Both the position numbers and the translations under genes were made by a program. A DNA stretch of 13,936 bases from Candidatus Heimdallarchaeota archaeon (GTDB lineage Archaea; Asgardarchaeota; Heimdallarchaeia; Hodarchaeales; Hodarchaeaceae), in the NCBI GenBank assembly GCA_011364965.1, contig RDOB01000001.1:252026-265961 (forward strand), read 5' to 3'. Shown here piece after piece: positions 900-13,936 of this stretch. The notes beneath the pieces are model-generated. The model ran no database searches. It was not told the DNA's origin and saw only the letters and a list, made by a program, of their open reading frames with translations. Numbering within the stretch: the first letter of the stretch is position 1; each line of letters starts with the position of its first letter.

Positions 900-1677
900 A
901 CATAATTCCTCAAAAATTATTGTTTTTGAATTGCGTATATTTTACAGTGAGTTTTTAATTATAGCTTTAGGTGAACAAGGGAATAAGTCGTAAAGTCAGA
1001 TAAAAACTTAAAGATTCATAAAGCACATAATAAAGGGGCTTTAAAATTACTGATGTGCAATTAGCGTTCTCTGAAAATTCTGTGACTTCAGCGAAACTAC
1101 TAATGGCAATGTAACCCACATTGGGGAGCGTGAGGGGGGTAAGTATAATGCATAGGAATGGCAAATATACGATCTGAAGAACCTTTTAGAGTCATGATAA
1201 CCTCTACCGTCAAGATGCTAAAATAATCCATTCAGGGAATGTCTTCATCTTTGTGATTTATAAGACATTACCAGATTAATGTTAAAAAAACCTCCTTATA
1301 TAAGAAATAACTCAGAATTAAAGGGTATTAGACATTCATTGGGAAGAAAGATATTAAATTTTGGAAATCAAGGGGATAAAACACAACAAACAATAAATTA
1401 TAATGAAAGCAAATAGAAAGGAAACTCAGATATTCATGCACAATCTGAATGGGATTTATATAATTATTATTAATGGTAAGAAGCAAAAGATACCCAAAAA
1501 AACCGCTAAAATTTTCATGTATCAATTTCATTTCACCTCTTTTGGGCTAAAAAGTTTATTAATAATTGAAATCATAGAATGGGAGATCAACCATTTGAAG
1601 TCGTCTAATTTCCATTAGATTCCCTATTTTAAACAGAATTGCCAAAATTATTAACCTCAGCTTTAGGAGGCTTAAGA

Positions 1678-4674
1678 TTGATACGATTAGGACTGAAATT
1701 TGGATTAAATGATTTATTAATTTCGTGTATCATCTTGGGAGGTATTTTTAGCACAATATTAGATATTGGTGTCATATATGAGGAACAATTAACGATTGAA
1801 GACGAACTGAAGCAAACTGCAATGATTGCCGCCGATTATGTTCTTCAACAAGCTATTAGTCCCGCAGTAGATGAACTAACTTGGCCAATAGCATATAGTC
1901 CGTCTCAAAATATTACTACTGTATTTAATTTTGAATTGTCCATCATTAATGAAACTTTAGGTCAGGTAGAAGATGAAGCAGTGACCAGTATAGCTCTTGG
2001 AGATGCAGATAATGATGGAGATAATGACATTGTCGTGGGAACGAGTCCAAAGGGTTTAGTTGTTTTCTATGAAAATATTGCTACCAATTACACAGCCCAG
2101 TTTAATTCGAGTCTCATTGCTAACTTTAGTCACCAATATGGAAGGATCCCAATCCAGGTAGGGGACATCCTTATTGCAGATATAGAAAATACAGGTAGTA
2201 ATAACATCCTTGTAGGAACTGGATACTGGGATGGACAGTATATTGGTGATGTATTTTCTTTTGAAAAGTCTGCTAGTGAATGGATACAGAGAGGAGCATT
2301 TAATGAGATGGCTAATCCTGTTATTGGAGGTGTTTACAGCCTTGCTTTTGGAGAATTTGGGGAAGATTCTAAACTTATCATCGCTTTGGGGAATGGAATA
2401 ACTAATGTATTTGATAAAAGCAATATAACCATTTATTCAAAAGTACAGGACGTGTGGGAAGAAACACAATTGGTTGTAACTAATCAATCAAGACCCAAAA
2501 TATGCATTGGGGACTATACATCTGCTTTTGATGGAAATGAGATAATCTATTGTACCTATAGCGATAATAGTACCTTAGGATATATTTCATATACCAATGG
2601 CTCTTATACTCACCATATAATTGATAGCTATCTAATAAAATCAGGTGATCCCCCGCCATATACAAGATATATGAATATTGGAATAGGAGACTTTGAAGGA
2701 GACAGCTCTAATGAGCTAACAGTAGCTATTGATGGGGATGGTCCAAATCAAGATAGGTTAAAATTCTATTCAGATACCTCTAATGTAACAATTATTGAAA
2801 ATCTCGAATTTATAAGTGATGTAGAGTTTGAATTTGCTGACTTTGATAATGATGGGCGTGATGAGGTTGTTTATTGTTTTACAAACACAACCTTGTTTCC
2901 TGATACATATTTAATGGTTTATGACTGGAATAACACAGAAAGCCATTTAATATATCTTGAAACTACTATTGAGACATTCATTTCAGAATTGAAAGCTGGA
3001 AATATAGACCTAGATGATGATATAGAGTTTCTTTACGGGACAGAAGGGAATGGATGGTTGAGATTATGGGATCATCCAAAACATGCAGATTACTCCTTTG
3101 AGAAATTAGCATTTAACGTGAGTTTCATACAACATAAACCATGGATTTATGAAGATGAAACCTATCCATTTACTGTAATTCTTCAATATATAGACGGGGT
3201 AAATAGTGTTTATGATATTAATTTAACACCAATACTTCCAGAATATATGGATTATTTAGGCCCCTCACCATGGATTAATGAGCTAACTCCAGGCTCAAAA
3301 CGGATATTAAACTTTAATCTGAGATCTGAAACCTTTGGAAGCTATCCAGTAACCCTGAGAATTGCTTTTCAACAAATTAGATTATTTGAGGTACAATTAC
3401 CTTTTATTCCTCGATTTCCCCTTCAAACACAGATCGGCCAGTCTTTACTTGAATTAGCACTTTATACAGGAGACGATAAATATCTCAAAGCTGCATTAAA
3501 AGTGGGAAATTGGCTTGATTCTGTTGGTATTCCATGTGGACAGTATCGTGCATGGAATCTGAATTCCAACTACACAGAGACCTTGATGCCAGGCTATATT
3601 CGCTCGACTATGAGGGCAGGACAATATTTCCTCAACCTATATAAGGTTACGGAAGACGCAAAATTTCTCAATGCAGCTTTAGATGCAGCTAATTTCCTAG
3701 CAAACATAGAAGAAGGAAACTTTACTCAGGTCGCAGAGAAGGGGATTACATGGGGATTCTCGGAAAATGCAATAGCCGAAACTGCTGAAGTGGGAAAATT
3801 TCTCCTGGAAATAATAAAATTAGGACTAGGCAATTTTTCAGAGGTAATCACTGGCATTGATGACTATTTAATAGCTATTGCTAATTATAATGGAGAATCA
3901 ATAAACTGGTTCGAATCTCCAGGTCTTACTCAAGCTGCTGGAAATTTCTTTATTATGAGAAGTACCGAAGGAAAAATCATTGCAGAACAAGCTGCAAATT
4001 GGATTTTGAACAAAATAAATACAAATATTTCATGGTTTAATAGCTTAAGCCCTTCAATGCGTTCAAATGAAATGTATATGCATTATACGGGAACTGGGCT
4101 GGCAGGAATTGGACAATTCTTAATTGATGTCGAAAGTAAGATAAACAAAAGTTATTCCGATGAGTTAGAGAATATCTTATCAAGATTATTAAATATCACA
4201 TATATAACAGAAAAAGGCCTCAATTGGTACACTCCCATATGGACTACAAATGCAACAGACCTTCTTTACTCTATAAATTACAAATGGGGAGCAGCAGGTA
4301 TCGCCTCATTCCTTATCAATTTATACAATAAAACCAAAAACCCTGTTTTTCGTACATATGCAATAGGTGCTTCGGAATGGATTAATGCAAGTCTTCCCAT
4401 AATTGGGTGTCTCCCCTATTATTCAACAGATACTATAGAGACTTTTGGTGACATTATAAGCTCCTTAACCAAAATTTTATACGTTATTAAGCCTCCCATT
4501 TATCCAACAACCTCCACAACTTCGACAACTGTTTCGCTTACCTCAAAGAGTTCTGCAATGGCATCAACAACCTCTCCCACCACAAAATCAACAACATTTC
4601 CAGGAGTTACATTAATTTTATTCATGTTTGTCCTCACAATTATTACAAATAGGCGAAGAAAGGAGGTTAAGTGA
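1678..4674 (+). CDS. Large cell-surface protein: N-terminal hydrophobic segment, 7 FG-GAP (integrin-alpha-like) repeats, Ig-like/CARDB-type domain, LanC-like (alpha/alpha)6 toroid, Ser/Thr linker, C-terminal sorting signal
   Basis: Repeats GDADNDGDNDIVVG, ADIENTGSNNILVG, GEFGEDSKLIIALG, GDYTSAFDGNEIIY, GDFEGDSSNELTVA, ADFDNDGRDEVVY, GNIDLDDDIEFLYG. LanC-like helices LLELALYTGDDKYLKAA, FLNLYKVTEDAKFLNAA, GTGLAGIGQFL, WGAAGIASFLINLY. Ends TTFPG-TM-RRRK. The ORF track starts at 1639, but AGGAGG at 1665-1670 precedes an in-frame TTG at 1678, which is the preferred start. Confidence 0.85.
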   Translation: MIRLGLKFGLNDLLISCIILGGIFSTILDIGVIYEEQLTIEDELKQTAMIAADYVLQQAISPAVDELTWPIAYSPSQNITTVFNFELSIINETLGQVEDEAVTSIALGDADNDGDNDIVVGTSPKGLVVFYENIATNYTAQFNSSLIANFSHQYGRIPIQVGDILIADIENTGSNNILVGTGYWDGQYIGDVFSFEKSASEWIQRGAFNEMANPVIGGVYSLAFGEFGEDSKLIIALGNGITNVFDKSNITIYSKVQDVWEETQLVVTNQSRPKICIGDYTSAFDGNEIIYCTYSDNSTLGYISYTNGSYTHHIIDSYLIKSGDPPPYTRYMNIGIGDFEGDSSNELTVAIDGDGPNQDRLKFYSDTSNVTIIENLEFISDVEFEFADFDNDGRDEVVYCFTNTTLFPDTYLMVYDWNNTESHLIYLETTIETFISELKAGNIDLDDDIEFLYGTEGNGWLRLWDHPKHADYSFEKLAFNVSFIQHKPWIYEDETYPFTVILQYIDGVNSVYDINLTPILPEYMDYLGPSPWINELTPGSKRILNFNLRSETFGSYPVTLRIAFQQIRLFEVQLPFIPRFPLQTQIGQSLLELALYTGDDKYLKAALKVGNWLDSVGIPCGQYRAWNLNSNYTETLMPGYIRSTMRAGQYFLNLYKVTEDAKFLNAALDAANFLANIEEGNFTQVAEKGITWGFSENAIAETAEVGKFLLEIIKLGLGNFSEVITGIDDYLIAIANYNGESINWFESPGLTQAAGNFFIMRSTEGKIIAEQAANWILNKINTNISWFNSLSPSMRSNEMYMHYTGTGLAGIGQFLIDVESKINKSYSDELENILSRLLNITYITEKGLNWYTPIWTTNATDLLYSINYKWGAAGIASFLINLYNKTKNPVFRTYAIGASEWINASLPIIGCLPYYSTDTIETFGDIISSLTKILYVIKPPIYPTTSTTSTTVSLTSKSSAMASTTSPTTKSTTFPGVTLILFMFVLTIITNRRRKEVK

Positions 4675-4999
4675 AATTATGGGATTGGAGGTATTTACGA
4701 CCAAGATGAAGGCCGACTATTATTCCACCAATTCCATGCAATAAAGACAGACCTGTCTCGTGTGGAGCAACCTATCTGGAATCTAGACCTATTACCTGAA
4801 TGCTCCTCTCTAGAGGAAGCTTTTAGCTTTTTAAAAATCAATAGCTTATAATTGCCATATTTCCGACGCTTTTATGCGTTCTCTCCCCTCCGAACCTTGT
4901 GAATATTCAGAATGCCATTCGCTCTATTACAAGCAAAGGAAGTTCTGAAGGTGAGACGAGAAATCTGACAGAAGGAAATCATCAATAGAACCTCCAAAT

Positions 5000-5039
5000 C
5001 CAAGACCAGCTGGATTCTCATTTTTTTTATTAGGAGGTG
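5000..5039 (-). repeat. Degenerate copy A of the 16S 3'-end/trailer element
   Basis: + strand CCAAGACCAGCTGGAT (5000-5015) is identical to 6316-6331. TATTAGGAGGTG (5028-5039) is identical to 12157-12168, the 16S anti-SD end plus the first trailer bases. Confidence 0.75.
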
Positions 5040-5154
5040 CGTTGGGTAACCATTCTCACTTTTATTCAACATGTCCTTCTTCAGATTTGGAGAAAGATGA
5101 TTATAACAATCACCCCAAGATAATATCGTTATAAAGAATTAAGAAATTGGCGGA

Positions 5155-5190
5155 GCTAGCAACCGAAGTTATTCCTAGTAAAAAAAGGGA
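5155..5190 (-). terminator. U-run plus C(UUCG)G hairpin downstream of the 220-aa gene
   Basis: Minus strand reads CCCTTTTTTTACTAGGAATAAC-TTCG-GTTGCTAGC: an oligo-T tract followed by a UUCG-capped stem. Confidence 0.5.
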
Positions 5191-5205
5191 GAAAGACCAC
5201 AATTA

Positions 5206-5868
5206 TTATTGCGGTCCTCCACCACCTATTGCTGTATAAATGGTTTGAGAAAAGCTATGTGTTATTGTAAACGTTTCATAAAGGATTGATTTGGACATCT
5301 CTCCTTTCACAATAACATCAGCATAAATATATAATTTCTGTCCATTTTGAATTGTAATATCAGGATTATAATCATCCCCACATGTCCACAGAAGATCTAC
5401 TGGAAGGAAAGCATACTTATTATCGAAGTAGTCAAACTCATAATAGAAATGAGTCCCTATAATCGTATTCAAACCAATATACTCATCATGCATAAATCCC
5501 CAATAATATTTATTATGAATTGAGTCATATATTGTTATGCTATCCCTTTTAATTCTAAGTCTGGTATATATATCTTCTATAGCTGACCAGTAACGATAAC
5601 CACAGATCATATTACCAAATGTTCCCTTGTCAAAGAGTTCAGATCTAAGCTGAACATACCTGATTATCTTTTTTTCACCATTATTATAAGAGTCTAATCC
5701 AATCTCTAAATCACTATCTACCATGACAAGAAGTTGACCATCAGCGTCTTTAATTTCGTTATACTTACTTTGTGTAATAGTCGATGCTTGTGCTATCACT
5801 GGGACAAGGAATATGACTATCAAGATGATAGCTGAAAACACCAATTTTTCTAGTTTTAACGACTTCAT
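5206..5868 (-). CDS. Secreted hypothetical protein
   Basis: 220-aa ORF with a basic N-terminus, hydrophobic core and AQA cleavage-like motif. No recognisable domain. Confidence 0.75.
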   Translation of the reverse strand: MKSLKLEKLVFSAIILIVIFLVPVIAQASTITQSKYNEIKDADGQLLVMVDSDLEIGLDSYNNGEKKIIRYVQLRSELFDKGTFGNMICGYRYWSAIEDIYTRLRIKRDSITIYDSIHNKYYWGFMHDEYIGLNTIIGTHFYYEFDYFDNKYAFLPVDLLWTCGDDYNPDITIQNGQKLYIYADVIVKGEMSKSILYETFTITHSFSQTIYTAIGGGGPQ

Positions 5869-6293
5869 TTTTTTCCCCTAACACTTTATATTCAGTTGTT
5901 TGCTAATAATTCCAAAGATGGATTTGTGTCATATTAACAATATTGAGAAGAATTGATTTTATCCAATAAAAGAATATTAGAATTCACTCCGAGCTTTTAG
6001 ATATCTCCAAATCCATGGAATCCATGAATTAGATCATTTCACAATTTATAAATGTATCTAAGGCTGACTCTCTTCTATCAATTAAATAATAATGTTCTCA
6101 TATAACAAATATGAAAAAATATACTTTTATTTGTGAATTGAGTTAACTAGAGAAATGAGAATGAGTTTTTCGCATAAAGATATCTTCAATTACCTTTCAG
6201 AATTTAATAATGAGGGTGAGATAAGTGACATGCTCTCAGGGGAGTTGTGAGTCCCAATAAACTCCAGATTTAAACCCTTGCAGGGAAAGGATC

Positions 6294-6465
6294 GACCTCG
6301 GCCTCATGATTGAAGCCAAGACCAGCTGGATATTCCCAATAGATTCAGGAAATTTTCTGTTCATCAGGTTTTTCTCTTCGATCAACCGATGTGGATCGAA
6401 AATATCCCATTCATGTCGTTAGGCTGTGGATTTGCCATACAAGAACCCAAAAAACCTATTAGAAA
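6294..6465 (-). repeat. Degenerate copy B of the 16S trailer element (structured)
   Basis: 6301-6332 matches 12073-12104 at 30/32. It has a 13-bp hairpin at 6294-6323. A 13-bp stem (6333-6345 with 6453-6465) is homologous to the stem at 12132-12165. Confidence 0.85.
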
Positions 6466-6702
6466 AGAAAAAATAAGCCATATATTAGTTAATCAAATTA
6501 AATAAGGAATTTAATTTCCTCTTTAAAGGATTTTTTCGGTCTCCTACTATTTCTACCTCATAGATTACGACACTAAGGTTACTATCAACATTTTAGCTGC
6601 TAATGGTGAATGTTGTTTGAATGATTGCCAAAGATATACATATAAATAACCGAATTCCAGGTCATTACCGAGACAAAGCAACTCAATCTGTTCAGTATAA
6701 AA

Positions 6703-6933
6703 GTGAATCAAATGAGATTCCATATTCCCCAACGAAGGTTAGAAGGTATTAGAAAAGATATTGAGGCATTAGCACATACAGGGATTTCTTCTTTAGAAAC
6801 AGGAGTTGATATGACTACGGATATAATGACTCTTTTTATAGATCGAATTCGAGCAGAGAACCCTACTTTAACAGAACCAGAAATTTTAAACCATGCTCGT
6901 GAATACATTTATCTTGGTCGGTCGAACTCTTGA
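6703..6933 (+). CDS. Putative antitoxin, MenA1 (Rv0078B)-like small helical protein
   Basis: 76 aa with 'RIRAENPTLTEPEI', resembling my recollection of MenA1-type antitoxins. Overlaps the downstream NTase start by 4 nt (TTGA). Confidence 0.6.
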   Translation: MNQMRFHIPQRRLEGIRKDIEALAHTGISSLETGVDMTTDIMTLFIDRIRAENPTLTEPEILNHAREYIYLGRSNS

Positions 6934-7499
6934 CTGTTGATGTTAAACTGAAGGATTTTATTCAGACTACGATAAGCTGTTTAGAAGAAAGCAGAATAAA
7001 ATATGTTTTAGTGGGTGGAGTAGCAGCTCTTATTTATGGCCGTCCTCGTACAACTCTTGATGTCGATATAGTGATAGATAGTGCTAATATTGAGGATGTT
7101 AAGAGATTAGAAACAACTTTGAAAGCCTATGGATTCTCATTACGAGATAATGAAATAGCTGAAGCACTAGGGGAAAAATCAAACTGTTCTGTCTTTCTAA
7201 AAGATTGTATCTATCGAATTGACATTCAGGGTACTTACTCACCTTTAGATTCCCGGTGTTTAAACAATCGATTATTGATGAAGATCTATGAACAAGACAC
7301 CTATATCCAGAAAGCAGAAGATTTAATTGTAGCAAAATTGGTCTATAGAAGCCCACAAGATTATGAAGATGTTCATGCTATCTTACTTCGGCAAAAGGAG
7401 AAATTAGATTACAATTACTTGAGATCCGTTGCTGCAATAGAGGGGATTGAAAGGCAATTAGATAAAATCCTATCTAGACTGAAAATCAAACCTATGTAA
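6930..7499 (+). CDS. Nucleotidyltransferase toxin-like protein (DUF6036 / MenT1 / AbiEii-like)
   Basis: YVLVGGVAALIYGRPRTTLDVDIV (GG...DxD NTase motif), EDLIVAKL and QDYEDV C-terminal motifs. Confidence 0.85.
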   Translation: MTVDVKLKDFIQTTISCLEESRIKYVLVGGVAALIYGRPRTTLDVDIVIDSANIEDVKRLETTLKAYGFSLRDNEIAEALGEKSNCSVFLKDCIYRIDIQGTYSPLDSRCLNNRLLMKIYEQDTYIQKAEDLIVAKLVYRSPQDYEDVHAILLRQKEKLDYNYLRSVAAIEGIERQLDKILSRLKIKPM

Positions 7500-7889
7500 A
7501 AAACATGAAAAAGACTAAGAGCGGACAGACAACAGACCTACAGCTCTGAGAAGGCTTAGATAGGGAGGAGAGCAACAATAAGAGAGACTATGGAGACTCC
7601 AACGAGAGATAGAGGCGAGAGGAAGAAGCATTCAGAGAAAATACAAAAAGAAAGAAATAATGATTGAGTATTTCGTTGAGATCGATTCTCTTGTAAGAGA
7701 AGAGAATCAAAATACACTTCCAAACTAATTAAATCAGGTTGATTCGGAATATAGAGAGATTTTTAACTACTAATAAGAAAATGATATAGTTTGTTAACGA
7801 TAGTTTTATAAATGAAAACATTGTACAATGATTTGAGAATTATTTGTAGACTAGCAGGTTAATAATAATATAAAAAACGTGACTAAAAG

Positions 7890-8204
7890 ATGAAAACAAC
7901 AGAAAAAGCCACAAAAGTATCACGAGCGAAAAGAATCTTAGAAGGGGAGAAACAACGGAGACATCTACTATTCTTAATAGAAGATAACCCAGGATTAACA
8001 GCGTACCAAATCTCACAGCGATTAGGATGGACAAGAGGGAAGGTAACCTATCATTTGAACAAACTCACCAACCAAGGAGAGCTCAGAAAAACAAGTATAG
8101 AAAATAACCCTCATCCCAAAAAAGTCTACCATATAGTCAAGTGGGAGAAGATGATAAACTGGGGTACCATTCCAGAGGAACAGAAGCCGAAAAAAACTAA
8201 GTAA
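7890..8204 (+). CDS. Winged helix-turn-helix transcriptional regulator (ArsR/HTH_24-like)
   Basis: IEDNPGLTAYQISQRLGWTRGKVTYHLNKLTNQGEL. Confidence 0.85.
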   Translation: MKTTEKATKVSRAKRILEGEKQRRHLLFLIEDNPGLTAYQISQRLGWTRGKVTYHLNKLTNQGELRKTSIENNPHPKKVYHIVKWEKMINWGTIPEEQKPKKTK

Positions 8205-8239
8205 ATAAGAAAAAGGGCAGGAAAACGCTCTTTAGCGAC

Positions 8240-8488
8240 CTAAATCCCTACCTCTGTTGGATAGTAAGTTACGCCTCCAGCTGTAGGGTGAGCTCTAAGT
8301 AACCCTTGAGCTACAAGAGACTTCAAAGGTTTTTTCAGCTTCCATTGCGCACGAGGCACAAGTTTTTTGCGAATACTCTCCATAGGAATATGCATGTTCA
8401 TCCGTGAGTCTAACAGCGAATAAGCAGCAAAAAGTACAGCGACTTCTTTTTGCGTTAAACGATCATCAGGTACAATACCAGTACTCAA
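8240..8488 (-). CDS. Small winged-helix protein
   Basis: LKSLVAQGLLRAHP...TYYPTEVG wing motif. GAGGAG precedes the TTG start, and a TTTATAT box lies at ~8531-8537 on the minus strand. Confidence 0.65.
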   Translation of the reverse strand: MSTGIVPDDRLTQKEVAVLFAAYSLLDSRMNMHIPMESIRKKLVPRAQWKLKKPLKSLVAQGLLRAHPTAGGVTYYPTEVGI

Positions 8489-8561
8489 GCTCCTCTAATC
8501 CTCCATCTCGAGTATCAATTGAGGGTGGACATATAAACATTTTGGTCAGAAAAATACTCTA

Positions 8562-8588
8562 AAGCCACTAAGAGCTGCTGGATAATCC
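8562..8588 (-). repeat. Possible highly degenerate copy D of the trailer core
   Basis: 8570-8588 AAGAGCTGCTGGATAATCC matches 6318-6336 AAGACCAGCTGGATATTCC at 16/19 and is preceded by AAGCC. Intergenic and in the same orientation, but the 13-bp hairpin is not evident. Confidence 0.35.
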
Positions 8589-8665
8589 TGAGATAGTTCC
8601 TGAAAGGAATCTAGCAAGTATCAGCTACATTTTCAACATCTAGGTCATAAATCCTTCTAATTCGC

Positions 8666-9277
8666 TCACTCTTCACGTTTCCTTCTGCGCGGAATGTTAA
8701 TCAAAACAAGGAATCCAAGAATTAGAAATTCCAAAGTGAATGCAGGAGTCGCCTGTGGGGGAATATGGTAATCTGATACATCAGTCCAAGGGGTGCGTAG
8801 ACCTAATGAAGGAACTCCCTCACTAATCACTCCAAAATCAATGAGAGTTTCGTCCACCAGAACTTGAAGATTAGTTTTATACGTGCAACGAGGGATGGTA
8901 GTGAAATTGTAAGACCAATACCGCAAGGGATGAAGAGTTACCGGTAGATCACTCACATTTAGAAGGATAATTTGACTCAAAAATTCAGTTCTATTCGTTT
9001 CATGGGTTCCAGAGAATGTCACATTCACCTGCTCAAGACGATGGGATTCTACATCCAAATTAGCAATAGCAAGGGTGAAAAAATCCAACGTGATCGTATC
9101 CCAGCATGTTTCATTAATACATCCTCCACACCAGCTGTATTCATGATCAGGAACCCGAATCTGGATAATAGATGAATTGGGAGGAGCTGTAGCAGGAATG
9201 GGACGACCGTGGACAATTAAAAGGAAAAGTAACGGTATAATACTCCATTTAAAAACAAATGAACAGCTTTGATTCAT
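8666..9277 (-). CDS. Secreted/cell-surface protein with C-terminal sorting signal (PGF-CTERM/Heimdall-CTERM-like)
   Basis: Signal peptide, GGCINETCWD motif, and C-terminus TPAF-TLEFLILGFLVLINIP-RRRKREE. Confidence 0.8.
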   Translation of the reverse strand: MNQSCSFVFKWSIIPLLFLLIVHGRPIPATAPPNSSIIQIRVPDHEYSWCGGCINETCWDTITLDFFTLAIANLDVESHRLEQVNVTFSGTHETNRTEFLSQIILLNVSDLPVTLHPLRYWSYNFTTIPRCTYKTNLQVLVDETLIDFGVISEGVPSLGLRTPWTDVSDYHIPPQATPAFTLEFLILGFLVLINIPRRRKREE

Positions 9278-9322
9278 CGTTATTCTCCTAAATTATCCTT
9301 ATTTCATTAATCATGTTACATA

Positions 9323-10309
9323 TTAAGGTTTTATAAAGATAATCACGGAAAAAGAAGGGAAATAAAGAGACTTACTGTCTTTCACTCCATCGAATTTTAT
9401 CTCATATTGCACTATCCAATCAAAGGTTATTGGATGTATTCTCACACTTTCATATTTGTTATCCCAGGTTTCTGCGCCGTCCATGATAACAGCTTCGATG
9501 TTAGGGTAGATAGTGGCGTTGTAGAGGTCTATTGCAGCATAGAGATGACAAATCTCATGAAGGATTGCACATTTCGTGCCAAATAATGGATTCTCCTCAA
9601 AATACACCCACCACTGAATGTATACGTATGTTCCTCTTGATACAGCCAAACAGCTTCCACAATATTCTTGTGCTTGAAAAGCTAACCCTATATCAAATCC
9701 ATGATTTTTCGGGGAGATCCCATAGGAATTGATCGTATAAATCGCATTTCAATCCCAATAATATTCAGAAAGATTTAATGCACAAGCTAACGCGTGTCTA
9801 CCATCATTAAAATAAGCATTAGTATTCCCCAACATCGCTGGATTCCAATCAAAGACAACTAAAGGCATAAATTGTTGATCTAATAGCTCAAATAACCCTT
9901 GAGACCAGTTATAGCCATTAGACATATTAGAGATTTTTAAGTTGTTGACATCAGCGATAAGCCCGTAGATATCCGTCCCATTGTCATCTAATATGGCTGA
10001 GAAATTACTTTCCAACATAATGGTTTGATAAACAATGTGTTTGGTGAGATTTTGCAGGATAGTGAACTCACTGTTAGCTGGTGCGCTAAGAGAATACCCC
10101 CAATCCTCACTAGCAGAGTAAATGTCCGTCACATCGTAGTTGCCAACGTTGAGAGCAAACCACCCATCCCAGGTAGAGCCTGAATAATCACTAGTGCCTT
10201 CAAAAACTTTAGGTATAACAATATCTGGGAGGAGGGGGATTTGTGTAGTAGATAACATCAGATCAGCGTGTACGATAGCCTGAGGAGAAATATCCAAATG
10301 AATGACCAA
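9323..10309 (-). pseudogene. Zinc metalloprotease (metzincin-like) reading frame interrupted by one in-frame TGA
   Basis: ORFs 9749-10309 and 9323-9649 are in the same frame. After the TGA (9749-9751) the frame reads NAIYTINSYGISPKNHGFDIGLAFQAQEYCGSCLAV without stops into the second ORF. It contains HEICHLYAAIDLY (HExxH...D) and a downstream IMD putative Met-turn. The true 5' end is uncertain. Confidence 0.75.
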
Positions 10310-10760
10310 TTATTCCATAATTTATCACAGTTTCATCGATTAACAACTGGACAGAAATGGTGGAAATACAACGGGGTAACCGCGTAAAATTACCCTGTCA
10401 GTAATAATGGGGATAGAGGACTACAGGAAGGTCTTTTGTGTCATTCAATATAATTTGGACAGTAAACGGAGCTTTATCTGTTTCATTAACCCCCTTGAAA
10501 GTTAATGTCACCTGTTCTAGAGTATGAACCTCAGTATCAAGGTTGACAACTATGAGTGCAAAATATGTGACTGTAATATAATCCCAACAATCTGTTCCAT
10601 TAATACAGCCTCCAGAATACCCTGATTCTGATTCAGGTATGCAAATACCAATTACTGACGAATCAGGAGGAGAAAGCACCGAAACGGGGGTAATCCCAAA
10701 CGAAATAAGGAAGTATATACTCAAGACCCAGTATAATTTTAGAAAATGCTTATGATTCAC
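10209..10760 (-). pseudogene. Paralog of the 8666-9277 protein with two in-frame TGA codons and no C-terminal anchor
   Basis: Homology continues past the ORF stop: HYY*QGNFTRLPRCISTISVQLLIDETVINYGII...GYRTR*SDVIYYTNPP versus LRYWSYNFTTIPRCTYKTNLQVLVDETLIDFGVI...GLRTPWTDVSDYHIPP. Ends at TAA 10209-10211. Confidence 0.85.
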
Positions 10761-10916
10761 TTAAGTCTCAATCCCAATTACTTTTTACCGTACAGGCTCG
10801 TTTTATACGGTTTACTAGAACCAAAAAGAGAACGAGAGAGCCTTATTTGTACATATAAGTCAAGGATATTAGCCTTAAGGAGGAGGTTGGTATATAAAAA
10901 CTTCTATGAAAAATCA

Positions 10917-11250
10917 TCAAGCATTTATGCGCGTTTTACGGATACTATACAGAATGACACCCAAAATCAGGGGAACAACTAGGAAACCAGAATTGGGGTG
11001 AGAACTAGTAGAAGAGGAAGATTGGTTACGTAATTCTAGCCATCTAGTAATATTGCTGACATAGAGGTGGCCTGTTCCTACATTGATGAAATAACCTAGG
11101 CGTATTATTTTAGTTTCTGGTGGAAGGTAAAAACATCGACTACCAATAGAATGTATTCTTCTTGCTTGTCCATATATTCACATGGACACGGATTAATTTC
11201 CTATCAACTCGTTCTGTAAATTCCAATGCTTGTTTCCAATCCCTTTAGTA
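10917..11250 (-). pseudogene. 3' remnant of a surface-protein gene with C-terminal sorting signal (not in ORF track)
   Basis: Minus frame ...FYLPPETKIIRLGYFINVGTGHLYVSNITRWLELRNQSSSSTSSHPNSGFLVVPLILGVILYSIRKTRINA*. The upstream part is broken by stops or a frameshift near 11140-11195. The 5' limit is approximate. Confidence 0.6.
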
Positions 11251-11313
11251 TAAATTCAACCGACCAGAGTAAGTGGGGATGTAAGGCGATTATATAAATG
11301 AAATTTATCAGCA

Positions 11314-11730
11314 TTAAGCTGTATACGTGAAATAAGAGAGCTTAAATAGCTTTTCAGAGAAGAAAAAATAGTTAGGAAAATCATCCCAATTCCAGTGATC
11401 CGCAAATGCTTCCAAGGTCTCAAATTCAGTATAAGTTACATCTTTCCAACTTTCGTTTTTAGAATCGTTAGATATGAGTTTGAGAACCATGGTATAAAGA
11501 AAGGGGACTGAATCGAAGTCAGAAGCAGTAAGATTAACAACAGAGTTAGTATTCATTTCAGAATTACTAATTCTAGTAAGTACAAGCATATATTGGATCG
11601 GTCCTCCGACGTCAGGAGCAAACAACATCATGCAAAGAAAAATACTTCCACAAAATGCAGAGAACGTGATAATACAAATTAAACTGGAAAAGATCACCTT
11701 TTTTTTGCCAACCAGATTCAACGTAATCAC
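11314..11730 (-). CDS. Membrane-anchored hypothetical protein
   Basis: 138 aa: KKK plus an N-terminal TM helix, then a small soluble domain (VVNLTASDFDSVPFL). Confidence 0.7.
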   Translation of the reverse strand: MITLNLVGKKKVIFSSLICIITFSAFCGSIFLCMMLFAPDVGGPIQYMLVLTRISNSEMNTNSVVNLTASDFDSVPFLYTMVLKLISNDSKNESWKDVTYTEFETLEAFADHWNWDDFPNYFFFSEKLFKLSYFTYTA

Positions 11731-11854
11731 GTATATCTAATAATTCAAATTCAATAAACCTAATTGGTCAAAGGGATTAATATAGCTATTGACTAGAGAA
11801 AGAGACGAAGGATAAAGAGTGCAAATTTTCAAAACCTAGACTTTGAATCAATCA

Positions 11855-12019
11855 CTAATTAATAATTCTATTTACTCAAGATGGTCCATCAAAGTACTCA
11901 ATATAGGTAGTGACGTCATCATCTGTATCCTCATGTAAATACCAACCACTAAAAACAATTGTTGAACTCATAATATAACCAAGACCGCCAACATGTCCTC
12001 CTCCGTTAATTGCATGGAA
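11855..12019 (-). pseudogene. Possible gene remnant (extracellular beta-rich fragment)
   Basis: Frame FHAINGGGHVGGLGYIMSSTIVFSGWYLHEDTDDDVTTYIEYFDGPS*VNRIIN* looks protein-like but has no clear start. Confidence 0.35.
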
Positions 12020-12049
12020 TTAAAGATTGACTCATGCATTTATCACCAA

Positions 12050-12160
12050 AAACAAGAAAAATCTAGGCCCCAGCCTCAGGATTGAAGCCAGGACCAGCTG
12101 GATAGCCAAGCTCGAAACCTCGAACCTGCTTCTCCCAATAGATGTGAATCTATATCTATT
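12050..12160 (-). ncRNA. Structured 3' trailer of the 16S fragment (copy C): three hairpins and a U-rich end
   Basis: Stem 12154-12165/12132-12143 (12 bp, overlaps the anti-SD), hairpin 12104-12130, 13-bp hairpin 12066-12095, then TTTTTCTTGTTTTT. G-U pairs favour a minus-strand RNA. Confidence 0.65.
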
Positions 12161-12305
12161 AGGAGGTGAGTACTGTCCCAGAGCGGCGTACTCGGGAAAT
12201 CCAGCCGCAGGTTCCCCTACAGCTACCTTGTTACGACTTCAGCCTACTCAACAAGAGTACCATCGAATACGATATTATCCTGTAGCCTCTAGCAGATCCG
12301 TCTCG
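12161..12305 (-). rRNA. rrs: Isolated 3'-terminal fragment of archaeal 16S rRNA (h44 from ~1416, h45, anti-SD) containing an intron
   Basis: Minus strand ...TGAGTAGGCTGAAGTCGTAACAAGGTAGCTGTAGGGGAACCTGCGGCTGGA[30 nt]TCACCTCCT. Upstream CGAG-ACGGATCTGCTA-GAGGC...TTCGA-TGGTACTCTTGT-TGA fits helix 44. The universal CACACCGCCCGTC and everything 5' of it are absent from the adjacent sequence. Confidence 0.93.
12170..12199 (-). other. 30-nt bulge-helix-bulge (BHB)-type rRNA intron
   Basis: Insert TTTCCCGAGTACGCCGCTCTGGGACAGTAC between GGA and TCACCTCCT. Central 4-bp helix GCUG/CAGU, 3-nt bulges GA^U and AC^U, and intron stem UCCCGAG/CUC(U)GGGA. Cutting after the second bulge nucleotide on each strand restores GGCUGGAUCACCUCCU exactly. 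Confidence 0.8.
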
Positions 12306-12438: not shown

Positions 12439-13431
12439 TCACTCCTCAAGTCTTTTGAGCATTCCAAAAAAAATCAAAACAAGAAGCAAGGAGCAGAGGA
12501 AAATTATCTGAAAAAAACGAGTTCCAGAAGGGAATGAAACCATTGGATTAGAAGAATGGACGGAAGACAGGGAAGAAGTATGGTGATTACTTATTATTTC
12601 ATAAGTATAATTAAGAAGAGATTCAAAAAAGTATTTGGCACATAAAGAAACGTAAATTCGTTGCCCTGTGCCACTATCGTTATCTATTGTCGTCCAAATA
12701 TAATCAATCGAACCATCCCACTGAGTTCTCAGACTTAAAATGGTTCCTCCTTTGTTAAGAAGACCAGTATGAGAAGGAGAATAAATCCAGAACTGCCAAT
12801 CACGTGAAGAATTTACTTGAAGGTAATTTTCAAACAATGTCCAAACAGCGGAATCAAAGGTAACAGTAAAAGAGAAGGAGCGATTATACGGATATAGGGA
12901 GGGAGGAACTCCAGCAATAACTTCATAATCGATTAAAACGGTACAATCATCAAAGTAAATGGCCTCTAAAAAAGTTCGTGATTCTGAATCATTTAGATAC
13001 CACTCATACGTGAGTTCCATACGAGTGAGTTCTTCTAAATCCTGATAATAACGAACCCACATAATGTCATAGGTAAAGAAATTAGATCCATTAATAGATA
13101 GTGAGACAAAACCAGTCTGTTCTTCTGATGGAGGAGAATCAGGGGTTTCTATCCAAAAAAGGAAAGGTTCACTATCAGTGAGGGAGGGAAAAATAAGAAG
13201 GGAGGAGAAAAATCCCCAAGAGGTATTGATCGTAACATTATGAGTGAAATACCTTGAATAAAAACCAATTGGAAATGAGGAATCTTTGATTAGGTCAGTA
13301 GCAAACCAGTAGACCTCTAAATCATCATTTGGGACAGAAATTGTAGGAGAAGGGAGAGTCATGATGCTTCCAGCCCAGATGAGGGTTAAAAGCACAAAAG
13401 AAAGGAAATTTAGTGACTTTCTTGGATACAC
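12439..13431 (-). CDS. Cell-surface hypothetical protein (signal peptide, Ser-rich linker, C-terminal TM plus basic tail)
   Basis: 330 aa with a hydrophobic N-terminus, many NxS/T sequons, and C-terminus SFP...FFQIIFLCSLLLVLIFFGMLKRLEE. Confidence 0.8.
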   Translation of the reverse strand: MYPRKSLNFLSFVLLTLIWAGSIMTLPSPTISVPNDDLEVYWFATDLIKDSSFPIGFYSRYFTHNVTINTSWGFFSSLLIFPSLTDSEPFLFWIETPDSPPSEEQTGFVSLSINGSNFFTYDIMWVRYYQDLEELTRMELTYEWYLNDSESRTFLEAIYFDDCTVLIDYEVIAGVPPSLYPYNRSFSFTVTFDSAVWTLFENYLQVNSSRDWQFWIYSPSHTGLLNKGGTILSLRTQWDGSIDYIWTTIDNDSGTGQRIYVSLCAKYFFESLLNYTYEIISNHHTSSLSSVHSSNPMVSFPSGTRFFQIIFLCSLLLVLIFFGMLKRLEE

Positions 13432-13481
13432 TAATTAGTCTCCAGAAGGTATCAATGCTTTTCAAAATGAACTTTCTGATA

Positions 13482-13936
13482 TTAATTCTTTTTCAAGCGA
13501 TCCTTTAATTGGGGCCTTTTATAGACAAGAACTAGTAATATAGAGGTTATTAAAATAAAGAGGGAAAAAATCACAATAGAATTGGGAATGGAGAGGTTTG
13601 AAGGTAAAGTGGTTGTTTTGTCTACTCTTCGCAATTGCAGGATGATAAAACCAGCTGATCCATGAGCTAAATAAAGGTACGACCCCTGGATAACAATATC
13701 AGAACCAGATCCAAAAACAGAAAGAAATCTGGTCATTTCTATTGGATCAAAAGAATCATCAATGTTTATCATCCTCACTCCATCTTCTGTGGAAACATAA
13801 ATGTAAGAATCATTGATAACCACAGAATAAGCGCAAAAATAATCATGTAGAGTACCATTGTATTGAACTACTTTTGCAGGTCTAATAATATTCCCTACAT
13901 ATATGATTTCCAAACCTTTCTTTCCATATGCAATAA
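13482..13936 (-). CDS. LVIVD-repeat surface protein, 3' part (5' end beyond window)
   Basis: SVVINDSYIYVSTEDGVRMINI and DIVIQGSYLYLAHGSAGFIILQL. The frame stays open to the window edge (IAYGKKGLEII). C-terminal TM plus KR tail. Confidence 0.85.
   Translation of the reverse strand, partial: IAYGKKGLEIIYVGNIIRPAKVVQYNGTLHDYFCAYSVVINDSYIYVSTEDGVRMINIDDSFDPIEMTRFLSVFGSGSDIVIQGSYLYLAHGSAGFIILQLRRVDKTTTLPSNLSIPNSIVIFSLFILITSILLVLVYKRPQLKDRLKKN

Follow-up and report, generated by a model that had tools for sequence, protein, structure and literature searches.

Why should archaeal DNA that encodes no intact 16S ribosomal RNA (rRNA) gene carry, between genes for surface proteins, repeated copies of the tail of one? 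The question is posed by a stretch of 13,936 nucleotides (nt) from a Candidatus Heimdallarchaeota archaeon, which we call the window. In tRNA and tmRNA 3′-end islands, both archaeal (SSV/pNOB8-type) and bacterial, incoming DNA restores the end of the gene and the displaced ends remain as co-oriented direct repeats; where such islands form tandems, older units decay and remnants lacking an integrase are common. A first-pass annotation of the window, made from the sequence letters, had proposed successive insertions at the 3′ end of a 16S gene. Here we propose, with a probability of about 60%, that the window is the old, decayed part of a fixed array that grew by accretion of 16S tails.

Repeats derived from the 16S end

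The 13-base core RGACCAGCTGGAT has exact matches at 5003, 6319 and 12091, all on the + strand of the window as first annotated, and none elsewhere in the 2.97-Mb genome. With up to two mismatches allowed, there are six matches against 0.41 expected, a number reached in none of 200 shuffles. Read on the minus strand, the three surrounding sequences (copies A, B and C) are derivatives of the 16S 3′ end and trailer of the genus. Their intergenic placement holds, the 66- and 97-amino-acid (aa) frames that overlap A and C both being likely spurious. An nhmmer tail profile, built from three sequences including B, found only B and C, with A marginal, in the 2.97 Mb. Because the core is confined to the window and the profile finds nothing beyond these copies, a MITE, a dispersed repeat and a generic terminator are excluded, and the repeats stand as first described: co-oriented copies of the 16S end and trailer, confined to this locus. 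The weaker match that had been listed near 8570 found no support. A string with two mismatches to the core does lie at 8571–8583 (+), but nhmmer did not report it and its local alignment to the full tail scored 16 against a shuffle mean of 16.7, so it shows no detectable homology to the tails.

Sequence from the body of the rRNA is found only in copy C, as had been claimed. Its first part (12199–12305, −) is a decayed 16S 3′ minor domain, comprising most of h44 together with h45 up to the terminal GGAT. This fragment begins 8 nt past the universal CCGCCCGTC box. In real 16S genes of the genus, the 107 nt that immediately precede the terminal GGAT align with it gap-free (window 12305–12199, −; 82–90% identity). 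Four of its 33 consensus pairs are broken, compared with none or one in seven real genes; its consensus-fold energy is −22 rather than about −44 kcal/mol; and two substitutions fall at positions that are invariant in eight aligned real 16S sequences of the genus. Exactly between the GGAT and CACC of the 16S terminus sits a 30-nt insert (12169–12198, −) predicted to fold into a hairpin with a 6-bp outer stem, of which the genome holds no second copy at up to six mismatches. The broken pairs, the changed invariant bases and the splitting of the terminal GGAUCACCUCC by this insert lead us to reject a functional 16S gene or a functional split piece, and Rfam gave no SSU match in the window. The second part of copy C (12053–12168, −) consists of the last 12 nt of the 16S gene and about 100 nt of trailer. 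It includes the core (12091–12103), a conserved hairpin (12066–12095) and a 28-nt insert formed by internal tandem duplication (about 12104–12131), and is detected by both nhmmer (E = 3.4e-21) and the covariance model (E = 6.5e-8).

Copy B (6234–6353, −) is a 120-nt trailer copy that begins about +20 past the 16S end, reaches the CCCCTGA box and contains no 16S sequence. It can be aligned with authentic trailers from the genus, sharing the invariant core and a second box (covariance model, E = 3.3e-12; nhmmer, E = 1e-44, B itself being in the profile) and is 79% identical to C across 52 nt. A sister assembly of the same species contains a fifth tail copy, E, at a distance of 8.5 kb from the window. 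B and E are 82.5% identical over exactly 120 nt, with unrelated flanks on both sides, which argues that the tail is a discrete recombination unit.

Copy A (4997–5036, −) does keep the 16S terminus, as first noticed: the last 12 nt of the gene (5025–5036) are followed, after 12 nt, by a slightly extended core (4997–5015), which gives a 12-nt 16S end plus about 30 nt of trailer. The arrangement is much like the authentic junction of 16S end and trailer in L041. On its 5′ side the copy stops precisely at GGAT|CACC, the same bond that the 30-nt insert of copy C occupies. The gene-end flank of copy A recurs together with the 12-nt terminus, inverted and lacking the core, behind a paralog at L034:1177-1276 (87% over 101 nt). 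Finally, relic F (7502–7540, −), which directly abuts the end of a nucleotidyltransferase gene, preserves only the terminal part of the trailer, a processing-stem box and a T-rich run; over 38 nt it matches the final part of tail E (L034:3980-4015; score 37, shuffle maximum 31). The same box terminates every 23S tail, at least 18 of which occur, co-oriented, in the same genome, and is complementary to the 16S leader box of relatives.

A, B, C and E all align with authentic 16S ends and trailers from the genus, which marks them as copies of the 16S gene's 3′ region. The orphans follow in the order E, C, F, B, A, and all significant tails share one orientation, whereas the genes between them point both ways. 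The tails have ragged boundaries at both ends, which vary between −120 and +20 when counted from the end of the 16S gene, with no single core.

Gene blocks between the tails

Upstream of copy C, a block at 12439–13934 (−) encodes a 330-aa secreted, anchored ORFan and, truncated by the contig end, the C-terminal portion of a 698-aa LVIVD-repeat surface protein. The block behind tail C (11357–12068, −) starts right at the end of the tail and includes the ORF of a 138-aa membrane protein (11314–11730). It is 70.9% identical over 731 nt to L034:5385-6104, a paralog found 7 kb further upstream in the sister assembly, with no tail ahead of it. The first 183 nt of the block (11885–12067) reach 95% identity to the paralog and form a recent conversion tract that starts at the tail/block junction. 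Next comes an ORFan cluster (8666–10760, −) with no Pfam domains, composed of a 203-aa secreted, C-terminally anchored ORFan, a broken 120-aa paralog and fragments of 186 and 108 aa from an HExxH-motif family, a full 509-aa member of which is encoded upstream in the sister assembly.

Opposite to the tails, a two-gene module (6703–7499, +) pairs a 76-aa ORF with a 189-aa DUF6036-type nucleotidyltransferase (Pfam DUF6036, E = 3.9e-9; weak AbiEii and DUF2204 matches), the two overlapping by 4 nt; from its sequence it looks like a toxin–antitoxin pair. The block upstream of tail B ends in segment X (6381–6478, −), which is 88.8% identical over 98 nt to L034:6088-6185, directly after the paralog of the block behind tail C. 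The last block (5064–5868, −) encodes a secreted 220-aa ORFan (ORF 5206–5868), followed by an out-of-frame relic of what was once its C-terminal membrane anchor (about 5064–5140). A 220-aa gene of L020 and L034 has a 3′ end that matches 5064–5120 of this relic at 82%; at the protein level that gene is a 39% paralog of a 216-aa ORF in L034. The 220-aa ORF of the window gave no protein-level match to either of these and no homologs were found outside the species. The cargo agrees with the first-pass annotation: ORFans that are secreted or anchored in the membrane, fragments of pseudogenes and, reading the other way, a nucleotidyltransferase pair. This stretch of surface-protein and toxin–antitoxin-like genes is species-specific.

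A Pfam scan of the 10 longest window ORFs and 8 sister-locus ORFs detected no recombinase or nuclease domain, confirming the earlier statement that the window has no recombinase, and no integrase, reverse transcriptase or homing nuclease is encoded in the window or the sister locus. A linked tyrosine or serine recombinase or reverse transcriptase, which had been predicted, was found neither in the window nor in the 10.5 kb beyond it. The two PF00589 genes of the genome are on other contigs, as are its LAGLIDADG matches, which lie inside large ORFs (about 1,250 aa). The ORF adjoining copy E is an ORFan with a low-confidence predicted fold.

A collinear arrangement in one species

An independent NCBI assembly of the species carries all 13,936 bases at 99.8% identity and continues for a further 10.5 kb. 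Copies A and B are also spanned by Logan and JGI contigs of several samples, and wherever short Logan contigs cover the locus they show the same arrangement. Altogether, the same-species contigs (10–14) are collinear at 99.6–100% identity, with no gene-content variation at the repeats. The strain differences that the first-pass annotation had expected to break at the repeats are therefore absent within the species, and there is no sign of ongoing cassette turnover. Nor did the 16S gene expected to adjoin the array appear in either assembly: no intact copy is present in the metagenome-assembled genome (MAG) or in the 20-kb sister locus, where the contig covers 12 kb upstream of C without a 16S gene and stops 3.8 kb upstream of copy E.

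Across the genus, we found no orthologous locus and no synteny between the array and the 16S loci of relatives. The real 16S genes of two genus members are followed by a single trailer, with no further tail in 18.7 kb (G016) or 40 kb (G001) downstream, and the proposed covariance-model scan, run on 22 genomes of the genus, recovered no other array.

Fresh arrays behind intact 16S genes

The same build is found in three other Heimdallarchaeia lineages. There, direct repeats of the 16S tail (93–347 nt, 95–97% identity) sit directly behind an intact 16S gene and bracket 6.6–38 kb of accessory DNA. An intact 16S heads the array in G024, G042, G028 and G038, and the clustering of tails behind 16S genes that had been foreseen is evident, with intact genes, in G024, G042 and both Ca. 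Heimdallarchaeum genomes. In G024, 347-nt repeats of 97.4% identity stand 14.2 kb apart behind the 16S gene, accompanied by a third copy, and SIR2-STAND and HEPN genes are among the cargo. On the 16S gene, the G024 repeat and copy C of the window start within 1 nt of each other. G042, a sister species of G024, has three tails with different cargo, one 1-kb block being shared but placed elsewhere; the anticipated cargo differences between tails thus exist between these sister species, and presence/absence differences of this kind were seen only in this other genus. The scanned ORFs of the fresh inserts gave no integrase match.

In Ca. Heimdallarchaeum aukensis, a 134-nt tail repeat (95.5% identity) that starts 20 nt inside the 16S gene brackets 6.6 kb, and in Ca. 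H. endolithica 93-nt repeats bracket 38 kb; the 93-nt repeat and a further one of 68 nt are 96–97% identical. The inserts lie between the 16S gene and a tRNA gene (ARAGORN anticodon read: tcta). This is the site of the published HeimM2 and HeimV2 insertions, located between the single 16S gene and tRNA-Arg(TCT), for which a homing-endonuclease homolog (HeimM2) and viral and giant genes (HeimV2) were reported (Wu et al. 2022, PMC8813620). The terms 'direct repeat' and 'att site' have no occurrences in the text of that article, and tandem arrays are not described in it (PMC8813620). We find that same-direction 16S-tail copies flank both insertions.

Proposed accretion of tails behind the 16S gene

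The window is a worn-down version of the layout found directly behind intact 16S genes in related archaea. We propose that the final bases of a 16S gene, or its trailer, took up blocks of DNA time and again. With every new block a working 16S end would have been brought in or regenerated, and the end and trailer that had stood there would have moved downstream to become a same-direction orphan. The orphans E, C, F, B and A would later have been truncated, interrupted and mutated, while cargo was duplicated and pseudogenised, until the arrangement became fixed in the species. Insertion may have been homologous, site-specific or nuclease-driven; we favour recombination without a dedicated integrase, either by Campbell-type single crossover of circles carrying a tail or by repair of a break after a nuclease cut near the 16S end. 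The real 16S gene probably lies, or once lay, upstream past the ends of the assemblies.

Several observations support repeated insertion: the core and the terminal 12-mer agree with authentic 16S ends and trailers from the genus, the helix that covaries in real genes persists in B, C and E, and C holds 107 nt of 16S; the repeats are co-oriented and confined to this locus, and B and E share the tail but not their flanks; a conversion tract of 95% identity meets tail C at its junction with the block, and the gene end with the 12-nt terminus recurs behind a paralog; fresh arrays stand behind intact 16S genes, with the boundaries of C and the G024 repeat within 1 nt of each other; and the same genome has its many co-oriented 23S tails. 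The first-pass proposal of successive insertions is accordingly upheld by the 16S-tail repeats and the arrays of relatives, and weakened by the missing 16S neighbour and the lack of strain variation. Also counting against it are the single trailers in G016 and G001, the absence of other arrays in the 22 genomes and of synteny to relatives' 16S loci, the ragged limits, the tail-less paralog of the block behind C and the inverted upstream part. If correct, the reading suggests that the tail of an rRNA gene is a reusable landing site for new genes.

Alternatively, the window may be a wrecked rRNA locus from which the ancestral 16S(–ITS–23S) body was deleted, the tails having multiplied through ordinary local events (segmental duplication, inversion, gene conversion) within an island of surface-protein genes that evolves fast, with no insertion aimed at them. 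The locus is indeed rich in paralogous segments of 70–89% identity, with broken copies and one inverted block upstream; copy C is a decayed pseudogene piece, the flank of copy A was duplicated along with its gene, and both strain variation and mobility genes are absent. However, block duplication predicts shared flanks, whereas B and E have only the 120-nt tail in common. Nor does a wreck account for significant tails in a single orientation among genes that are not, for the coincidence of the copy C limit with the G024 repeat, or for the same build, fresh behind intact 16S genes elsewhere, with cargo that differs between sister species. We consider this origin unlikely.

Still less probable, in our view, is that the tails were retained by selection as RNA signals for neighbouring genes, acting in transcription stop, in processing or 3′-end protection, or as an alternative partner for the rRNA leader stem. 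In its favour, B, C and E keep the trailer helix that covaries in real genes of the genus, in E and F a T-run still follows the processing-stem box, the hairpin and T-run at the junction of tail C score as terminator-like, and 9 of the 12 longer ORFs point in the tail direction. However, the copies are cut at different points, A and F preserve non-overlapping scraps, and identity among copies is only 79–83%. A useful terminator should also have spread, yet the element is absent elsewhere in the genome, and terminator-like sites are not enriched (5 found, 4.6 expected). Misjoining of real rRNA operon fragments into an unrelated contig, for which one could cite the frequent misassembly of rRNA regions, the contig end at the window end and Logan unitig breaks at 12082 and 12210 inside copy C, is ruled out by the agreement of two independent assemblies and of the Logan and JGI contigs over A and B, and the copies have diverged from each other and from real 16S, unlike chimeras of a true operon.

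Comparison with known systems

The accretion proposed here shares with tRNA and tmRNA islands the use of a stable-RNA gene 3′ end as target and repeats that copy its 3′ part. It differs in that the target is the 16S end with its trailer, the limits are ragged rather than set by one core, and no tyrosine or serine recombinase occurs in the window or the further 10.5 kb. Integrons possess an IntI integrase, an attI site and attC imperfect hairpins with R/L boxes that close each cassette. Like sedentary chromosomal integrons and CALINs, the window has small, mostly co-oriented accessory blocks, a toxin–antitoxin-like module and repeated non-coding separators; unlike them, it has no IntI and no attI or Pc architecture, its repeats are rRNA tails and not attC, and its blocks are often multigene and in both orientations. 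With ragged boundaries, no integrase and repeats of another kind, the initial wording of 'att scars' and an 'integron-like' archive survives as analogy.

HeimM2 and HeimV2 are closer: both place accessory DNA directly behind 16S, with repeats of the same kind as A, B and E. They have an intact 16S and young repeats, whereas the window has old, truncated repeats and no 16S in reach, and it contains neither a homing-endonuclease homolog nor viral or giant genes. The WHO elements at FBA1 of Torulaspora and Lachancea yeasts offer a further parallel, where an essential gene has its 3′ end replaced over and over (Coughlan et al. 2020, PMC7282813). Each earlier 3′ end is displaced downstream, leaving a row of same-direction orphan fragments and decaying cargo with no integrase; the units encode the driving endonuclease, whose cleavage was demonstrated at the bench (PMC7282813). 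The window likewise has orphan 3′ fragments that are all co-oriented, with C and A starting inside the 16S gene. It differs in having no recognisable nuclease gene and an RNA gene as target.

By analogy with WHO, the tails could be traces left by a nuclease-driven homing system whose target is the final 16S bases, a version of the mechanism that we regard as doubtful. A cut near the 16S end would be repaired from a donor carrying a cut-resistant 16S end and cargo, and the old end would be orphaned. The cleavage site would then be GGAT|CACC, where copy C has its 30-nt insert and copy A its 5′ limit, and the hairpin inserts of about 30 nt that we observe in the intact 16S ends of G024 and G040 might be immunity devices. 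If such homing took place, repeated rounds of it would also explain the unlinking of 16S and 23S in some members of the genus.

16S-derived tails in the window

The 13-base core that the first-pass annotation had placed at 5003, 6319 and 12091 occurs there exactly and co-oriented (+ strand in 3/3 in the window search), and these three sites are its only exact occurrences in the 2.97-Mb genome, of which the window makes up the last 13.9 kb of contig C13. Allowing up to two mismatches raises the number to six, where 0.41 would be expected; none of the shuffles yields as many. Genuine 16S genes of the genus carry, 3–22 nt past the gene end, an invariant 10-mer around CCAGCTGG, beyond which follow a helix that covaries between species and then a CCCCTGA box. 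The core therefore belongs natively to the pre-16S trailer, which in some members of the genus is also the beginning of the 16S–23S spacer.

Three copies of this tail (the 16S 3′ end and/or the trailer behind it) lie on the minus strand of the window. In copy C, positions 12305–12199 align gap-free to the final 107 nt that precede GGAT at the end of genuine 16S genes, taken from four same-genus genomes and seven metagenome contigs; a 30-nt insert (12198–12169) separates this fragment from the last 12 nt of the 16S terminus (12168–12157), which are directly followed by about 100 nt of trailer with the core inside. Copy B (6353–6234) repeats 120 nt of the trailer and has no 16S sequence; in copy A (5036–4997) the last 12 nt of the 16S are separated from the core by a 12-nt spacer. 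Alignment to genuine genus 16S ends thus bears out the earlier proposal that the repeats are 16S ends and trailers. Scanning metagenomes with a 16S 3′-end pattern gave seven genuine 16S genes from other species and none from this one.

The 16S piece of copy C is decayed. It breaks 4 of 33 consensus base pairs (0–1 in seven real genes), its energy on the consensus fold is −22 kcal/mol as against about −44 kcal/mol in real genes, two genus-invariant bases are altered, and the 30-nt insert interrupts the universally conserved 16S terminus. The broken pairs and weak fold rule out a functional or split 16S piece. Rfam reports no rRNA in the window, either at gathering thresholds or at E ≤ 1, and no small-subunit rRNA is present anywhere in the metagenome-assembled genome (MAG); the fragment, to which Rfam is blind, is seen solely through comparison with relatives.

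A profile built from copies B and C and from tail E, a fifth copy described below, finds no further match in the genome, copy A coming next-best at an E-value of about 1. With exact cores and profile matches confined to this locus, a miniature inverted-repeat transposable element (MITE) or other dispersed repeat is ruled out. The weaker copy proposed at 8571 did not hold up: the tail profile does not recover it, and its alignment is no better than those of shuffles.

A further relic and a fifth tail

Relic F (7540–7502, minus strand) matches the terminal 38 nt of a complete trailer, made up of a box followed by a T-run, with an alignment score of 37 against a shuffle maximum of 31. In addition, every one of the many 23S tails in the genome closes with this box, sharply limited on its 3′ side, and the 16S leader of relatives carries its complement; the box is therefore the 3′ strand of the rRNA processing stem.

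Another assembly of the species, GCA_016839295.1, is 99.8% identical across the entire window and extends 10.5 kb beyond it. This extension holds tail E, which matches copy B at 82.5% identity over exactly 120 nt and then runs on to the terminal box; B and E have the tail alone in common, with unrelated DNA on both flanks. The gene-end flank of copy A and its 12-nt terminus are also present there inverted, without the core, behind a paralogous gene. Completeness varies with position, E being the fullest tail and farthest upstream, and A the shortest and farthest downstream.

Blocks between the tails

With few exceptions, the open reading frames (ORFs) of the blocks are ORFans specific to the species, bearing signal peptides, C-terminal membrane anchors or both, and they group into small paralog families with broken members. 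These comprise a 203-aa gene and a 120-aa wreck of the same family; fragments of an HExxH-motif protein with a full 509-aa copy upstream; a 138-aa and a 143-aa gene; and a sister-locus pair of 216/220 aa with gene-end DNA that recurs as a relic behind the window's own 220-aa gene. Searches for homologs of the 220-aa protein and of the 336-aa ORFan adjoining tail E (exhaustive HMMER for the latter) returned self-matches only, and the AlphaFold model of the 336-aa protein (pLDDT 50) is too poor for a fold search.

Between relic F and copy B lies a two-gene DUF6036 nucleotidyltransferase module in the opposite orientation, which looks like a toxin–antitoxin pair. A 48-nt piece of the nucleotidyltransferase gene (6956–7003) is 90% identical to a segment upstream in the island (8670–8717 of the sister-locus sequence L034), a scrap of a second copy of the module. 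The block behind copy C starts exactly where homology to B and E ends; a paralogous block matches it at 95% identity over the first 183 nt and at 71% otherwise, and the 183-nt stretch marks a recent recombination tract beginning at the junction of tail and block.

Farther along is a 1011-aa surface protein (1639–4674, + strand) that combines FG-GAP-like repeats with a linker rich in Thr/Ser and a C-terminal anchor, behind which come basic residues. It has no match at E ≤ 1e-20 among 21 genus genomes, and the species-specific island therefore extends past copy A. A 160-nt non-coding stretch (1027–1189) has a 75% identical repeat on another contig of the MAG (G000:C1:97,766–97,927). Separately, Logan contigs have an intact 698-aa LVIVD-repeat gene that the NCBI assembly annotates as separate genes of 384 and 297 aa (L024:1495–2388 and L024:293–1447 versus L020:1308–3404), a split that is either a frameshift or a strain difference.

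Tail arrays behind intact 16S genes

The last 70 nt of the 16S fragment, searched against 83 genomes of the class, led to G024, a genome from another family, in which the end of an intact 16S gene and its trailer recur 14.2 kb downstream as a 347-nt direct repeat of 97.4% identity. A third copy of 154 nt follows 1.5 kb beyond the second, and the inserted cargo comprises a SIR2–STAND–TPR protein, a HEPN protein and a 1625-aa ORF, with no integrase. In its sister species G042, three tails follow the 16S, with other cargo (AbiV, HEPN and a histone-fold protein); the two species share one 1-kb block of 95% identity, but at a different position. Limits of the repeats recur across families: the G024 repeat starts 7 nt, and copy C 8 nt, past the CCGCCCGTC box of 16S, and the third copy of G024, the third tail of G042 and copy A all start 8–15 nt ahead of the 16S end.

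In the two closed Candidatus Heimdallarchaeum genomes the tail is likewise repeated 6.6 kb downstream (134 nt, 95.5%), running from 20 nt inside the gene, with additional repeats at 38 kb (93 nt) and 41 kb (68 nt), both at 96–97%; these repeats precede a tRNA whose anticodon is read by ARAGORN as tcta. HeimM2 and HeimV2, the one published neighbour of the phenomenon, were placed at the same site by Wu et al. 2022 (PMC8813620), who reported a homing-endonuclease homolog in HeimM2; the terms ‘direct repeat’ and ‘att site’ are absent from the text of that paper. About 190–240 nt past the 16S end of Ca. H. aukensis (L067, G028), inside the published HeimM2 site, the 16S 3′ end also recurs in inverted, degenerate form, 77% identical over 48 nt.

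Arrays of a related kind occur in the window's own genome at another rRNA gene. The 23S end and trailer are present in at least 18 co-oriented copies on contigs C12 (485,900–525,100) and C8; their 5′ limits are ragged and their 3′ limit falls sharply just past a conserved box. A 3′ fragment of about 250 nt within this array is all the 23S sequence that the MAG contains.

Proposed accretion at the 16S 3′ end and its alternatives

We put a probability of about 0.6 on the window being an old section of a 16S-tail accretion array. In this history, DNA blocks would enter at the end of a 16S gene, each entry pushing the old 16S end and trailer downstream, after which tails and cargo would decay; the fullest tail lying upstream (E) and the shortest downstream (A) fits this order of decay. 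The first-pass annotation had read the locus as successive insertions at a 16S 3′ end. Its identification of the repeats stands and the pattern that it predicted is found in relatives, but the locus itself yields no adjoining 16S, turnover or enzyme. No intact 16S occurs within 12 kb upstream of copy C, where the sister contig ends; protein look-up past the contig end gained the 10.5 kb, again without 16S, and further look-up led to the same contig. Same-species contigs from several samples are all collinear. Neither integrase, reverse transcriptase nor homing nuclease is encoded in the window or the 10.5-kb extension; the two tyrosine recombinases and the LAGLIDADG matches (inside large ORFs) of the genome are on other contigs, no reverse transcriptase was found in the genome, and Pfam, PHROGs and NCBIfam scans of the cargo proteins here and in G024 and G042 found no recombinase or nuclease.

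Within the genus, DNA-level matches to the window are limited to its DinB gene and the 16S piece, and the real 16S loci of the relatives G016 and G001 have a single trailer, with no second copy in 18.7 kb and 40 kb downstream, respectively. A trailer covariance model run on 22 genus genomes returned genuine trailers and one weak in-ORF match, and no other array. An orthologous locus was found neither by synteny against the 16S-downstream regions of relatives nor genus-wide with the 1011-aa protein, the whole window and the preceding 20 kb as queries.

Local duplication in the remains of a former rRNA locus would account for the paralogs and the decay, yet it leaves unexplained why homology is confined to the tails, why these share one orientation and why fresh arrays exist elsewhere, and we consider it improbable. 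Still less credible is selection of the tails as RNA signals: the kept helix and the box with its T-run fit such a role, which is at odds with the non-overlapping scraps A and F and with the element's absence from the rest of the genome. An assembly artefact is excluded by the independent assemblies.

As to how blocks would enter under the accretion reading, ragged repeat limits, long fresh repeats (up to 347 nt) and the lack of an integrase speak for homologous entry by single crossover of a tail-carrying circle. The recurrence of two 16S positions as limits in different families speaks for a site-specific cut, as does the bond between GGAT and CACC that is shared by the 30-nt insert of copy C and the 5′ limit of copy A. 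This second route resembles that of yeast WHO elements at FBA1, where the 3′ end of the gene is replaced and orphan fragments are left behind (PMC7282813).

A literature search found no description of rRNA-tail repeat arrays, which we regard as another form of the accretion known at stable-RNA gene ends. If rRNA tails are landing pads, Asgard archaea gain a gene-capture route without a recognisable integrase, and a docking site among the most conserved sequences in biology would ease exchange across species. Such a route would also offer a concrete mechanism for accessory defence and surface-gene islands behind rRNA genes, for small inserts that some Heimdallarchaeia 16S genes carry in their 3′ ends and for the physical separation of 16S and 23S in these lineages. 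To this the window would contribute a late stage, an array out of contact with any assembled 16S, decayed and fixed in the species. Annotators of such genomes should take short 3′ pieces of 16S or 23S neither for rRNA genes nor for contamination.

Other features of 16S loci

Operon layout varies in the genus: 16S, spacer and 23S are linked in some members (L040 and L041 versus L043/L044), with spacers of 250–520 nt, and G016 has no 23S detectable by Rfam within 18.7 kb downstream of its 16S. In G024 (L062, G024:C23) and G040 (L010), 16S genes that appear intact contain, a few bases ahead of the terminal GGAUCACCUCC, hairpin-forming inserts of about 31 nt, and G040 has another in h45; G042, the sister species of G024, lacks the insert. 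Such inserts may be mini-introns or tolerated expansions. The 16S of G008 (L008, contig C9) is 2,225 nt long for 1,478 model positions, the roughly 750 inserted nt probably being an intron, and the same genome has an isolated scrap of the h44/h45 junction (~22–30 nt; L019, G008:C39:116,027–116,056) far from its own 16S gene.
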